Shown: positions 12,169 to 17,185, counted from the stretch's first letter. The stretch is 64,000 nt of DNA from Dictyostelium discoideum (GCA_000004695.1 CM000153.2:4352001-4416000); one strand, 5' to 3'. Notes: a model not told the origin generated them from the letters alone. Numbers and translations: made by a program.

Positions 12169-13770
12169 TTATTCAATAGAGTAATACTTTTTAATTGTTT
12201 TATTAATAGATTGTATAAATTGAAATAGTTGAGGGGTTTGAATTATTTCATTTATTGTCAATGATTTAATTGATTTGTTTTTTGCAATCATTAATCCAAA
12301 TGTTTGAATAAATTGATCTGGTAATTTGTGTTTTTCAAATTCTCCAAGCGATTCTTTACATGTATGTTCAATTGAAATCGATTTTAATGTTTTATGATTT
12401 GAAATTGATTGAAATATATAATTCCAATAATATTTGAAATTTGAGTTTTTATTGTGTGGTTTATTGGTTTTTTTATTTCTTTCATCCTCTTCGTCATCGT
12501 CATCGTGTTCAAAACTACATTTACAAGGTTTTAATGATGCATTTCTATTTGATAAATGATATATTAGATTTTCAAAACATAAACCAATTGATAGGCCTTC
12601 TATTTTTGGACATCCTTTTAAAATGTAATATATTTGTTTGATAGATAAACTATCTGAATATGACAAATCATGTAAATAGTATATACTTTTATTTAAAGAA
12701 ATTTCCTTGAATGGAAAAATCCACTCATCATAATTTTCAACATCTATTGCCTTGATTTTACATCTTGAAAACAATTGCACTATTTCATTTGGTGGGAAAC
12801 ATGATTTTAAATGTATTCCTATTGAAAAAAAAAAAAAATAAAATAAAATAAAATTAATTAAATATGTGGGAGAGTGGGGTGTTAATAATTTTATAATATA
12901 CACAAATAAAATATTAATAATTCTATACATACCTCCGATTTGTTTTACATTATTTGTGATTTTGTTTATAAAACTTATACTATTATTAATATTAGAAAAT
13001 GGATAATACCCATTGTTTTTAGAATGAGAATAATTTATTGTTGATAAATTATTATTATTATTATTATTATTATTATTATTATTATTATTATTATTATTAT
13101 TATTATTATTATTATTATTATCATAATTCTTACTATTGTTATCATCAATTACTTTTATTTTAATATTTTCAAATTGGATATCACCCAATGTATCAAAATA
13201 AAAAGGTACATATAATTTTTTTAAATTTTTTAAATTTTTTAGAGTTGGATTTAATTTATTATTTATAAAATTAATATCATTAATTGGTTGAAGGTTTGTA
13301 ATTTTAAAATATTTTATATTTTCATATTGTAAAATACAATAATATGATGAATTAAAACAATTAAAATCAACAATAACATTCAATTCAGATTGTACCATAT
13401 GGAACCAATCCCAACAAACATTAGCAATTTGATTCTTAAGTCTACATAAATATTTTTTTTTTTCTATATTTCCGATGTTTGTTTTTATATTATTTGATTT
13501 ATTTATATATTTACACAAAATTTTAATTATAATACTTTGTAAATAAAATGGTATTGTATTTTGATTATCATCCACACAATTATTTTTATTTATATTGTTA
13601 TTTTTATTATTATCATTTTCATTATTATTATAATTTTTATTATTATTATTATTATTTGATATTTTAATTATCTTTTTTTCTTTATCATTTTCAATTAATG
13701 TTTGGGTTTCTCCTGTTCTTTTATTTTTTAAAACATTTTGATTAAATGAAGTTGATTTATAATTTTCCAT
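12169..13770 (-). CDS. Poly-Asn-rich protein with an F-box-like N-terminal motif and a leucine-rich region; paralogue of the downstream gene; complement(join(12169..12818,12933..13770))
   Basis: A 114-nt intron at 12819..12932 (donor GTATGT, acceptor CAATAG) sits inside the continuous track ORF. It is a multiple of 3, so the ORF reads through it as the junk peptide MYRIINILF...SIG. Spliced, the junction reads ...NVKQIG-G-IHLKSCFPPNEIVQLFSRCKIKAIDVENYDEW. The N-terminus IIKILCKYIN...LCRLKNQIANVCWDWFHMV resembles an F-box (L..IL..I...L..VCK.W). Several blocks are collinear with gene 14711..17185. Confidence 0.6.
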   Translation of the reverse strand: MENYKSTSFNQNVLKNKRTGETQTLIENDKEKKIIKISNNNNNNKNYNNNENDNNKNNNINKNNCVDDNQNTIPFYLQSIIIKILCKYINKSNNIKTNIGNIEKKKYLCRLKNQIANVCWDWFHMVQSELNVIVDFNCFNSSYYCILQYENIKYFKITNLQPINDINFINNKLNPTLKNLKNLKKLYVPFYFDTLGDIQFENIKIKVIDDNNSKNYDNNNNNNNNNNNNNNNNNNNNNNNNLSTINYSHSKNNGYYPFSNINNSISFINKITNNVKQIGGMYRIINILFVYIIKLLTPHSPTYLINFILFYFFFFSIGIHLKSCFPPNEIVQLFSRCKIKAIDVENYDEWIFPFKEISLNKSIYYLHDLSYSDSLSIKQIYYILKGCPKIEGLSIGLCFENLIYHLSNRNASLKPCKCSFEHDDDDEEDERNKKTNKPHNKNSNFKYYWNYIFQSISNHKTLKSISIEHTCKESLGEFEKHKLPDQFIQTFGLMIAKNKSIKSLTINEIIQTPQLFQFIQSINKTIKKYYSIE

Positions 13771-14710: not shown

Positions 14711-17185
14711 CTAAGGTTGTAATAAATAATTAAATATTGCCCTATCATCATTATAATTGTGACGATAATTTGTTTTCCTTATAGTAAAGGATTCGATATG
14801 TGGATATTGAGCAATTAATTTTTCAACTGATTCTATATATTCTTTTTTATTTTTATGTGTATTTATAAAAGTAGTTGTAAATCTTGTAATTGATTGATTT
14901 CCATGAGTTAAAATATATTCAAACAATTGAGCTGTATGAAAACTATAAAAATTAATTTTTTCTAAAGAGGTATTTTTGGCCAAAACCTCACCTAATGCAT
15001 AAATAAATTCGTTTGGAAATGCTGGTCTTTTGTGAAATTCTGATTCTGTTTCACTTTTTGAATTTCCAAAATTAATATTACCATTTGTATTATTATTATT
15101 ATTATTATTACTATTATTATTATTATTATTATTATTATAATTATTATTATTATTATTATTATTATTATTAATATTATTATTATTGATAATAAAATTTGGA
15201 ACGGGATTAATATTATTTAAACCATGATGATTATTATAAAAAAATTGACACCTATGTTTTATTGATAAAAACTTCAAGTATTTATGGTTTCTAATTATAT
15301 CTGAAATTGACTTCCAATATATCCGATTCATATCATATTTTTGATTAATATTATAATTATTATTATTATTATTATTACTATTATTATTATTATTATTATT
15401 ATTATTACTATTATTATTATTATTACTATTATTATTATTATTATTATTATTATTATTATTATTATTATTATTATTATTATTATTATTATTATTATTATTA
15501 TTATTATTATTATTATTATTATTATTATTATTATTATTATTATTATTATTATTATTATTATTATTATTATTATTATTATTATTATTACTATTTTGATTAT
15601 TATTATTATTTTGATTATTTTGGTTGAAACTACAGAAACAAGGTGGTGTTAATTTCTCTGTAACACAATATAATAAATTATCAAAACAAATATCAAACGA
15701 TAATTGTTGAATTCTATCGGCACCCATTAAAACATAATAAAGATCTTCCAATGATAATGTGATATCATATATTTCGAATTGACGCATTGAAAAATTGAAT
15801 GATTTATTTTCAAATAAATGTTTGAAAGGGAATTCATATGGATAAAACTCTAAACAAAATTTCTTTATTTTACACCTTTTAAACAATTCTATAATCCTAA
15901 TTGGTGTATAAAGTGAAATATTATTTATTATTTGAATTTTTTTTATATTTAATGAGACATTATGTTGATTATTATTATTATTATTATTATTATTATTATT
16001 ATTATTATTATTATTATTTTGGTTTAAATTAATATTTGTTTCACTAAATACTCTAATATTACTAAAACGGTCAAAGTCTATTGATTGAACTTTAATATTT
16101 TCAAAATTAACCAAACCTAGATACTCATTATATTCCATTATCGTTATTTTCTCCAGTAATGGTAATGATTTAATCTCTTCATTCAAAATATTTTTAAACC
16201 TAATTTCATCATCCAAATTAACTGTAATCTTTAAGGTTTTTATATTTGATGCTTTTAAAATCTTGAATTGACTGTTCAATATTGTTTCGTCTTCCAATTC
16301 GTTTTTCCAATTCGATTCAACATTTTGATCTTGAATTTGTTCAACACTTTCATTGTCATCATCTTCATCCTCATCATAATCACTATAGTCCCCAAAACCA
16401 TTATTATTAACTCTATAATTGTTTTTTTTATTATCATATATTTCATTGTTATAATTATTGGTATTATTATTATTATTGCCACTATTATTATTATTATTAT
16501 TATTATTATTATTATTATTATTATTATTATTATTATTATTATTATTATTATTATTATTATTATTATTATTATTATTATTATTATTATTATAATTATTGGA
16601 ATTTTTTATTTTTTCACACGTTTTTGGATTTAAAATTTTGAATGCTCTTTGAGGTGACCACTTATAATTAAAATTTATTGATACTGTAAGAAAATTTGAA
16701 ACTGTATGGAACCATCCTTTATTTACCAATGCTAAACTTAATGTTAGATTCTGAATCTCATTCTTTGTTGTTAAATTATATCTAAAAATTCTAGTGGTTG
16801 AATTATTATTTATAAAATTACATATCATTTTTATGATATATTGTTGTAAGTAATATGAAATTGTTGGTGATTGTTGAGATTGTTCACAAAGTTCTTGTGG
16901 GCTTAATAAAGTTGTAGTTGTAGTTGTAGCTATAGTTGTAGTTGTGGTTGATATGATAAATGGTTTGGATGGTTGAGAATTTGTGTCATTGTTATTATTA
17001 TTATTATCGGTATTTAAAAAACTATTGTCTTCTTTTACTATTTCGATTTTACAATTTTTGTCATCACCATTAGTATTATCTTGATATTTTATTCTTTTAA
17101 AAGAGTTTCCATTATCGTTAATATTTCTTTTATCGCATTCATTTTCATTCATATCATGGAGACTACTAAAAAGGTCTTTCTCCAT
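14711..17185 (-). CDS. Poly-Asn-rich F-box-like/leucine-rich protein (824 aa), tandem paralogue of 12169..13770
   Basis: A single ORF shares with its neighbour YLQQYIIKMICNFINN...LALVNKGWFHTV (F-box-like), LFKRCKIKKFCLEFYPYEFPFKHLFENKSF...LYYVLMGADRIQQLSFDICFDNLLYCV and KFLSIKHRCQ...EFHKRPAFPNEFIYALGEVLAKNTSLEKINF. It contains an (ATT)n tract of about 240 nt, giving more than 70 Asn. Confidence 0.65.
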   Translation of the reverse strand: MEKDLFSSLHDMNENECDKRNINDNGNSFKRIKYQDNTNGDDKNCKIEIVKEDNSFLNTDNNNNNNDTNSQPSKPFIISTTTTTIATTTTTTLLSPQELCEQSQQSPTISYYLQQYIIKMICNFINNNSTTRIFRYNLTTKNEIQNLTLSLALVNKGWFHTVSNFLTVSINFNYKWSPQRAFKILNPKTCEKIKNSNNYNNNNNNNNNNNNNNNNNNNNNNNNNNNNNNNNNNNSGNNNNNTNNYNNEIYDNKKNNYRVNNNGFGDYSDYDEDEDDDNESVEQIQDQNVESNWKNELEDETILNSQFKILKASNIKTLKITVNLDDEIRFKNILNEEIKSLPLLEKITIMEYNEYLGLVNFENIKVQSIDFDRFSNIRVFSETNINLNQNNNNNNNNNNNNNNNNNQHNVSLNIKKIQIINNISLYTPIRIIELFKRCKIKKFCLEFYPYEFPFKHLFENKSFNFSMRQFEIYDITLSLEDLYYVLMGADRIQQLSFDICFDNLLYCVTEKLTPPCFCSFNQNNQNNNNNQNSNNNNNNNNNNNNNNNNNNNNNNNNNNNNNNNNNNNNNNNNNNNNNNNNNNNNNSNNNNNSNNNNNNNNNSNNNNNNNYNINQKYDMNRIYWKSISDIIRNHKYLKFLSIKHRCQFFYNNHHGLNNINPVPNFIINNNNINNNNNNNNNNYNNNNNNNNSNNNNNNNTNGNINFGNSKSETESEFHKRPAFPNEFIYALGEVLAKNTSLEKINFYSFHTAQLFEYILTHGNQSITRFTTTFINTHKNKKEYIESVEKLIAQYPHIESFTIRKTNYRHNYNDDRAIFNYLLQP
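15350..15595. repeat. (ATT)n / (AAT)n microsatellite of about 240 nt, with ACT interruptions, inside a CDS (poly-Asn)
   Basis: Direct reading: attattattattattattactatt.... Similar coding microsatellites occur at 5171-5260, 6181-6262, 10868-10990, 12995-13120, 16480-16600, 22880-23000, 34861-34980 and 50351-50450. A (GTT)n run, read as poly-Gln on the minus strand, is at 23880-23965. Confidence 0.9.

Follow-up and report, generated by a model that had tools for sequence, protein, structure and literature searches.

An adjacent pair of Asn-rich leucine-rich repeat genes from a Dictyostelium-restricted, F-box-like family, one of them with a probable in-frame intron

Published work has established that the F-boxes of Dictyostelium SCF (Skp1/cullin-1/F-box) receptors escape standard profiles, and the closest described relatives of the two genes considered here are found in the Skp1 interactome of Boland et al. 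(J Biol Chem 2022; PMC9485057). Figure S3 of that study lists DDB_G0273009, DDB_G0273173 and DDB_G0278029 as F-box-like, 'LRR+' and PhyA-enhanced, the last term denoting an interaction that depends on the O2-dependent modification of Skp1. All three carry the code for vegetative Skp1 co-immunoprecipitation (co-IP); DDB_G0273009 and DDB_G0278029 are placed in class 'pv' (F-box predicted, and recovered by vegetative Skp1 co-IP), and DDB_G0273173 has its v code in the loop list only, not in the main table. The three listed sequences read LPLYIQKYII...*...IKRLMLTLALV-SQDWFKTLSNNLT, with helix 1/2 loops of 18-26 residues. Here we describe two neighboring genes, A and B, that belong to the same protein family and lie in a 64,000-nucleotide stretch of the Dictyostelium discoideum genome (GCA_000004695.1 CM000153.2:4352001-4416000, hereafter the window). 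Gene A corresponds to the open reading frame (ORF) at 12169..13770, which reads through 533 codons, and gene B to the ORF at 14711..17185, which encodes 824 residues. The two genes share the minus strand, with 940 bp between them, and the ORF coordinates agree with those given in a preliminary description of the locus.

We read A and B as old, adjacent paralogs of a Dictyostelium-restricted, FBXL-like family that act as Skp1-docked SCF receptors, with gene A spliced and the loops of both proteins inflated by repeats, and we place the probability of this combined reading at roughly 0.62. Each protein would consist of a variable, Asn-rich leader, a cryptic three-helix F-box with an insert of ~25-30 residues between helices 1 and 2, and ~11 leucine-rich repeats (LRRs) of the FBXL/RNI type. 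By analogy with the interacting paralogs, the N-terminal block would dock Skp1 and bring the protein into an SCF E3 ubiquitin ligase, and the concave face of the LRR domain would recruit substrates for ubiquitination. Gene A would be expressed as a 495-residue protein after removal of a 114-nt phase-1 intron whose length happens to be divisible by three and which contains no stops. Finally, slippage of AAT microsatellites would inflate surface loops between the repeats, at the same loop positions across paralogs, and leave the spacing of the core unchanged. Of these points, the paralogy, the restriction to Dictyostelium, the LRR fold, the three-helix N block, the spacing kept after splicing and the siting of the repeats in loops are shown here, and we infer Skp1 binding and SCF function for A and B, splicing itself and a direct tandem duplication.

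We place A and B as two more members of a cryptic F-box-like/LRR family that the Skp1 interactome literature already covers. In common with the three published interactors, and with their relatives DDB_G0273011, DDB_G0286245 and DDB_G0286281, they have the blocks LPxYLQKxIIKxLC, insert, LALVxxxWFxTxS...DFN, LYYILKxxPxxxxLSxxICFDNLIY, CxC, YW, and NHKxLxxLxIxHxC, a helix-1/helix-2 loop of ~18-30 residues, and Asn tracts in loops; the interactors also duplicate in tandem. In contrast, A and B are only ~25-35% identical to the interactor family members, and a C-terminal segment of ~52 residues found in those relatives is absent from gene A. The block listed in PMC9485057 is that of P0031, the 497-residue AX4 product of DDB_G0273011, and of its strain allele P0030, whose neighbor has the exact DDB_G0273009 loop sequence. 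Skp1 association is thus experimental for members of this family, and we infer its extension to A and B by analogy. Two other Skp1 co-IP entries in the same published figure, DDB_G0281481 and DDB_G0286243, have family-like N-terminal strings ('ALVNKCWFESISNF', which may be compared with LALVNKGWFHTVSNF in gene B, and 'ILKYS*...LSLVCKSW'), and the gene number of DDB_G0286243 adjoins that of the family member DDB_G0286245.

To determine the extent of the family, 1.84 billion cluster representatives were searched exhaustively with a HMMER profile, which returned 27 proteins at E <= 1e-3. Three of these were rejected as poly-N artefacts in unrelated GC-rich proteins, and the 24 genuine matches define a family of ~24 clusters at 50% identity. 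Sources were looked up for roughly half of these, and every one is a Dictyostelium (D. discoideum, D. cf. discoideum, D. citrinum, D. dimigraforme, D. firmibasis, and D. purpureum), a distribution that supports restriction of the family to this genus and bears out the earlier suggestion that it is lineage-specific. Members in strain AX4 include DDB_G0286245, DDB_G0286281 and DDB_G0273011; locus-tag numbering puts the first two on the chromosome of the window, at a distance of some 20-50 genes from padA. Both A and B carry all of the collinear family blocks at conserved spacing, together with four invariant or near-invariant cysteines. No ortholog of A or B with >50% identity was found in any protein search, the exhaustive one included, although the adjacent 21 kb is 99% identical in another annotated D. 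discoideum strain; it is possible that such Asn-rich proteins have been clustered under unrelated representatives. Exact-sequence matching against protein records likewise gave nothing for gene A (spliced or unspliced), gene B or 11 other ORFs of the window, and padA was matched. Word-indexed protein searches, using gene A at full length, a repeat-masked version, or a 16-sequence family alignment, were dominated by poly-Asn words or returned almost nothing.

The N-terminal block was delineated by alignment of the family N blocks, hhalign comparison and AlphaFold modeling. In gene A it comprises residues 73-137 (13360..13554, minus strand), reading IPFYLQSIIIKILC ... insert ... IANVCWDWFHMVQS...VDFN, and in gene B residues 109-173 (16667..16861, minus strand), reading ISYYLQQYIIKMIC ... 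LALVNKGWFHTVS...INFN; between anchors it measures 61 residues in each. As a reference for hhalign we used six canonical F-boxes, each verified against Pfam (E down to 7e-18). Aligned with these, the 21-sequence family N block gave 37% with E 3.6e-4, and the match covered helices 2-3 only. The family alignment shows a variable segment of ~25-30 residues between 'LPxYLQKxIIKxLC' and 'IxxLxxxLALVxxxWF', at the junction of helix 1 and helix 2, and when this insert was deleted the comparison rose to 89% (E 2.3e-6, score 29.2), with the whole F-box in register, LP falling on LP and V..W on VCK.W. In control alignments, shuffling helix 1 only gave scores of 22.7 +/- 2.0, with 1 of 60 reaching 29.2, and shuffling all columns gave 8.4 +/- 1.7. 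The AlphaFold model of gene A places helices in this block at 75-94, 102-116 and 120-129, with mean pLDDT (AlphaFold's per-residue confidence) of 64-93 in blocks of 10 residues, and the first LRR strand, at 132-134, directly follows the three-helix module.

Several observations weigh against an F-box and against the wider reading built on it. Pfam F-box models have no match in A or B even at E <= 10, and among the 21 family N blocks they give only 2-3 sub-threshold matches (E 0.03-0.1). Searching PDB sequences with the N-block profile by hmmsearch found nothing. The canonical Leu-Pro position is Leu-Ser in gene B, a Pro to Ser change, and Ile-Pro in gene A. The 89% hhalign figure is the best of 112 choices of insert deletion. 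Neither A nor B is among the 83 sequences in the Skp1-interactor table of PMC9485057, and that study neither detected nor predicted them. An alternative that fits these points is that the N-terminal helical block of these LRR proteins does not function as an F-box but serves as a family-specific cap or a module for another partner, and that A and B have no role in SCF complexes; the ceiling of 37% in the unmanipulated hhalign comparison and the splitting of helices 1 and 2 by the insert can be read in the same way. We regard this as unlikely, given that Skp1 co-IPs have recovered paralogs sharing both the block and its insert, that the block without its insert aligns in register over all three F-box helices with a score well clear of the shuffled controls, and that the closest structural neighbors are F-box-LRR receptors. 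Taken with the label 'F-box domain-containing protein' that UniRef attaches to the members P0006, P0011, P0015 and P0042, the hhalign results lend moderate support to an F-box identity for the N block. The F-box-like designation in the preliminary description may therefore be kept in that qualified sense, with the proviso that standard Pfam models do not recover it.

Downstream of this module, the model of spliced gene A shows a curved solenoid in which beta-strands alternate with alpha-helices from repeat to repeat. It was built from 24 family sequences and has a mean pLDDT of 72 and a predicted template-modeling score (pTM) of 0.66; it replaces an earlier model from eight sequences in which the N terminus fell below pLDDT 50. 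Disorder is predicted for the leader, for the loop that holds a 24-residue Asn tract (226-265) and for an acidic loop (386-401). The solenoid spans residues 146-495 of the spliced protein (12172..13335, minus strand, across the intron) and contains ~11 strand-helix repeats. In gene B the corresponding region, defined by anchor comparison with gene A and by BLASTP, covers residues 309-824 (14714..16261, minus strand) and is broken by three Asn-rich loops. The closest PDB structures to the gene A model are FBXL2, MAX2, FBXL17, COI1, TIR1 and SKP2; a Foldseek search of the PDB ranked MAX2, COI1, TIR1 (two entries) and SKP2 first, at E 3.6e-5 to 4e-4, and the eight-sequence model gave similar results. 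Because of this model and this ranking, we assign the repeat domain to the FBXL/RNI type of LRR solenoid, by predicted fold and not by sequence membership. As a point on the other side, Pfam LRR families have no match in A or B at E <= 10.

The architecture is thus comparable to that of the FBXL receptors (human SKP2, FBXL2 and FBXL17; plant TIR1, COI1 and MAX2/D3), in which an N-terminal three-helix block is followed by an RNI/CC-type LRR solenoid. Unlike those receptors, A and B are Pfam-negative, have an F-box-like block split by a long insert, are only 8-13% identical to the structural matches, and carry long homopolymer loops within the solenoid. Two other groups of repeat proteins resemble them less. 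The FNIP-repeat proteins of Dictyostelium and mimiviruses (PF05725) are also lineage-expanded and LRR-like, and in Dictyostelium they are often Asn-rich. Some entries of the Skp1 interactome are labeled 'LRR/FNIP' (PMC9485057). Membership of A and B in this group was rejected: there is no PF05725 match at E <= 10, and both the repeat motifs and the N-terminal block differ. Ribonuclease inhibitor and NLR-type LRR proteins are without an N-terminal F-box-like block and work in other pathways, and the likeness extends to fold class only.

The sole invariant or near-invariant residues in the family are four cysteines, which in gene A numbering are C360 (24 of 24 members), C378 and C380 (23 of 24 each) and C433 (24 of 24); they are encoded within ~12470..12692 of the window and flank the most expandable loop. 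They lie just past LRR strands, as in cysteine-containing LRRs (CC-LRRs). They may be ordinary residues of the LRR core, forming a CC-LRR cysteine ladder; a metal or redox site is a less likely reading. FBXL5 offers a precedent for the second option, since its LRR domain holds a [2Fe-2S] cluster. The near-invariance of the cysteines and the PhyA-enhanced status of the three published paralogs are the grounds for a more far-reaching proposal, that these residues form a metal or redox center and that the family consists of Dictyostelium-specific SCF receptors tuned by oxygen or redox state; we consider it a long shot.

Gene A is composed of exon 1 (12933..13770), which supplies codons 1-279 and the first base of codon 280 by splice-phase calculation from the listed ORF, an intron (12819..12932) and exon 2 (12169..12818, including the stop codon), all on the minus strand, and its spliced product has 495 residues. 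The intron is 114 nt long, in phase 1, and 15.8% GC; it runs from GTATGT through a tract of 14 Ts to CAATAG, the junction is G|GT...AG|GA, and no stop occurs in frame, so that an ORF scan passes straight through it. This interval is the sole GT(A/T)(A/T)GT...T-rich...YAG candidate across both genes, and gene B, a single exon (14711..17185, minus strand) with 31% Asn, has no splice-site candidate within it. The judgment that 12819..12932 is an intron was reached chiefly because its removal gives the spacing seen throughout the family and restores a conserved LRR beta-strand. The distance from the NxKxI anchor to the PCxC anchor, which spans the junction, is 103 residues in spliced A and 102 in B, in keeping with the other anchored segments of A and B: ILxxxNIK to FENIK (54 and 52), YW to HxC (20 and 20), and PxxFI to QLF (30 and 29). 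The junction re-forms the strand N-V-K-Q-I-G|G-I-H-L, across which most of the 24 aligned family members show no gap and which AlphaFold models confidently as a beta-strand. In protein alignments, neither gene B nor the relative P0001 has residues opposite the 38-residue intron translation (MYRIINILFVYIIKLLTPHSPTYLINFILFYFFFFSI).

It could be argued that the 114 nt are retained, giving a 533-residue read-through protein with a 38-residue hydrophobic insertion. The segment is, after all, a multiple of three and open in frame, and two compositional measures fail to distinguish it from coding sequence: a trough in codon log-odds at the intron was dropped as evidence, as scores just as low occur in conserved coding windows of gene B, and GC content was also dropped, the intron value being no lower than the exon 1 average of 15.3%. 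(It is lower than the values of 21% and 29% in the immediate flanks.) Openness is nonetheless not rare by chance, at ~10% for such a composition and ~3% when divisibility by three is included. The splice sites are canonical, and the 38 residues would interrupt a conserved beta-strand at a point where no insertion is present in gene B, in P0001 or in most other members. Retention therefore seems very improbable to us, and 12819..12932 is almost certainly spliced out, as sequence comparison across the family indicates and as had been proposed for the smaller gene. Gene A differs in this respect from the three relatives whose loci were read and one neighbor of these, all of which are single-exon genes. 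An intron that is invisible to an ORF scan is an expected phenomenon and a routine trap in annotation.

A related discrepancy was observed in the AX4 model of DDB_G0273011. Compared with the strain allele P0030 (532 residues, called as a single exon), the AX4 protein lacks 34 residues (VISICFNNLIYYLSTKTERKKSKIKKCNCDSVIR) that hold a family-invariant Cys and the CxC motif. The two are otherwise identical but for a local change nearby, where the strain has NWDS and AX4 has IGL. The likely explanation is that the reference model has an in-frame intron called in error or that its sequence is locally at fault.

The C terminus of gene A raises a separate question. The protein ends just past the QLF motif (C terminus 12169..12330), ~52 residues short of gene B and other family members, and its stop codon is 115 bp from that of a convergent neighbor. 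Its N block also departs from the family consensus, with NVCWDW in place of LALVxxxW. These features could indicate a decaying copy, either an expressed pseudogene or a truncated relic, and not a working receptor. Such decay is hard to reconcile with an ORF that is intact across 495 codons after splicing, with the retention of all four invariant or near-invariant cysteines and the other near-invariant positions, or with a core that is modeled confidently (pLDDT 80-96 over most of residues 270-490), and we think it improbable that gene A is a decaying copy.

The relationship between the two genes is clearer than its history. BLASTP with compositional adjustment aligns A and B in separate, collinear high-scoring segments (E 7e-11, 9e-11, 2e-4 and 0.019) with 26-36% identity, and the four conserved blocks first noticed in the pair are all present, in the same collinear order. 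Since matches persist after compositional adjustment and under SEG masking, where tblastn of each protein against the other gene gives E 1e-11 to 5e-14, the similarity is not a product of low complexity. The pairwise alignment thus disposes of the objection that the shared blocks might be low-complexity matches only, and A and B are, on this sequence evidence, genuine paralogs. They are also mutually closest by identity (35.7% over 379 well-occupied columns), and neighbor-joining joins them.

Whether they arose directly from one another is less certain. A direct tandem duplication is plausible, and would be ancient if it happened; it is put no higher because the two proteins are only ~36% identical and their sister grouping has a bootstrap value of just 30%. 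By summed BLAST score the best partners lie elsewhere, gene A pairing with P0006 of D. purpureum and gene B with DDB_G0286245, and locus-tag numbering places further members on the chromosome that carries padA, ~20, 50 and 200 genes away from it. It is therefore conceivable, if in our view somewhat doubtful, that A and B are neighbors within an array of family members on this chromosome that is older and in part dispersed, and not the products of a single tandem event. Their mutual identity and common strand, and the 940 bp between them, speak instead for a local origin, and tandem duplication is demonstrated elsewhere in the family. There, P0030 (DDB_G0273011-like, L004 6001..7599) and a same-strand neighbor downstream (DDB_G0273009-like, 8044..9744) are 445 bp apart and 83% identical counting gaps. 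What mainly separates them is a pair of Asn expansions, +23 and +24; the loop that holds the first is also the site of the largest insertion of gene B. The arrangement is not universal, because the neighbors of P0001 and P0013, when checked, were not family members.

These comparisons bear on the proposal that the locus exemplifies duplication followed by repeat-driven divergence. The adjacency, orientation and paralogy of A and B stand, and direct duplication is plausible only; their divergence is mostly by substitution. The young P0030 pair is a cleaner case of duplication followed by repeat-driven change than A and B.

Repeats account for part of the difference in length. Gene B exceeds spliced gene A by 329 residues (824/495 = 1.66, where ~1.6-fold was noted at the outset), and 161 of the 329 are Asn, the remainder being other loop and leader sequence and ~52 C-terminal residues. 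Attribution of the gap to microsatellite expansion consequently holds for about half of it. An anchor-by-anchor comparison places every length difference in the leader (+36 residues in B relative to A), in four loops (+127 after the F-box-like block, -22 before the NxKxI strand, +75 after CxC, and +65 after HxC), or in the C-terminal tail that is absent from A (+52). The tracts themselves, all on the minus strand, were located with Tandem Repeats Finder (TRF). In gene B, the longest AAT (Asn) microsatellite lies at 15344..15619, reads as (ATT)92 on the plus strand and encodes the tract at residues 534-610. Within these 77 residues (74 N, 3 S), uninterrupted Asn extends for at most 53, over residues 534-586, so the figure of more than 70 consecutive Asn given in the preliminary description has to be corrected. 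Between the F-box-like block and the first LRR, where the loop has 12 residues in A and 139 in B, gene B carries (ATT)65 at 16400..16597; past the HxC motif, where the loop has 16 residues in A and 81 in B, it carries an Asn-rich tract at 15088..15184. A 17-residue Asn tract in gene B (15968..16018) lies in the same loop as the 24-residue tract of gene A, which is encoded by (ATT)31.7 at 13048..13142.

For the specialist, this is a correct but ordinary gene annotation that holds no surprise, and its practical consequences are modest. An ORF-only reading puts 38 nonsense residues into an LRR strand of gene A, and the AX4 model of DDB_G0273011 apparently has the reverse fault, the absence of 34 residues that include conserved family positions. 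A and B add two candidates to the incomplete list of Dictyostelium SCF substrate receptors. As a pair, they illustrate how AAT repeats in this genome expand in surface loops only, leaving the core spacing constant to within 1-2 residues.

The window as a whole is ~20% GC and contains poly-Asn and poly-Gln ORFs; no tRNA genes were found in it. The 940-bp spacer between the two genes (13771..14710, 11.7% GC) takes in the region around the 3′ end of gene B, together with what is presumably the promoter of gene A. The convergent neighbor of gene A is a 979-residue ORF with long poly-Gln and poly-Asn tracts (9114..12053, plus strand), for which Pfam gave low-complexity matches only, every one of them under the curated cut-offs. 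On the other side of the pair is a 183-residue EF-hand gene resembling neuronal calcium sensors (18399..19121, minus strand; exons 19121-19018, 18917-18736 and 18664-18399), whose introns of 100 nt (GTATGA...TTTTAG) and 71 nt (GTAAGG...CTTAG) resemble that of gene A. Other recognizable ORFs encode a protein kinase domain (3028..4263), a Kelch-repeat and SAM-domain protein (31620..33776), a protein with two RRM domains (53482..55497) and the C-terminal part of an SMC-family protein (62331..63998). Compared with the chromosome record CM142510.1 of another D. discoideum assembly (GCA_054883475.1), the window is 99.08% identical across 21 kb; this match and the padA sequence were read as marking chromosomal D. 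discoideum DNA of a non-AX4 or variant strain. The padA ortholog (DDB_G0286385), which encodes the NmrA-like prestalk A differentiation protein, is a 301-residue ORF at 41013..41918 on the plus strand; its product is identical to one natural-isolate D. discoideum allele and differs from that of AX4 by a single residue, at the last position (M301 versus I301).

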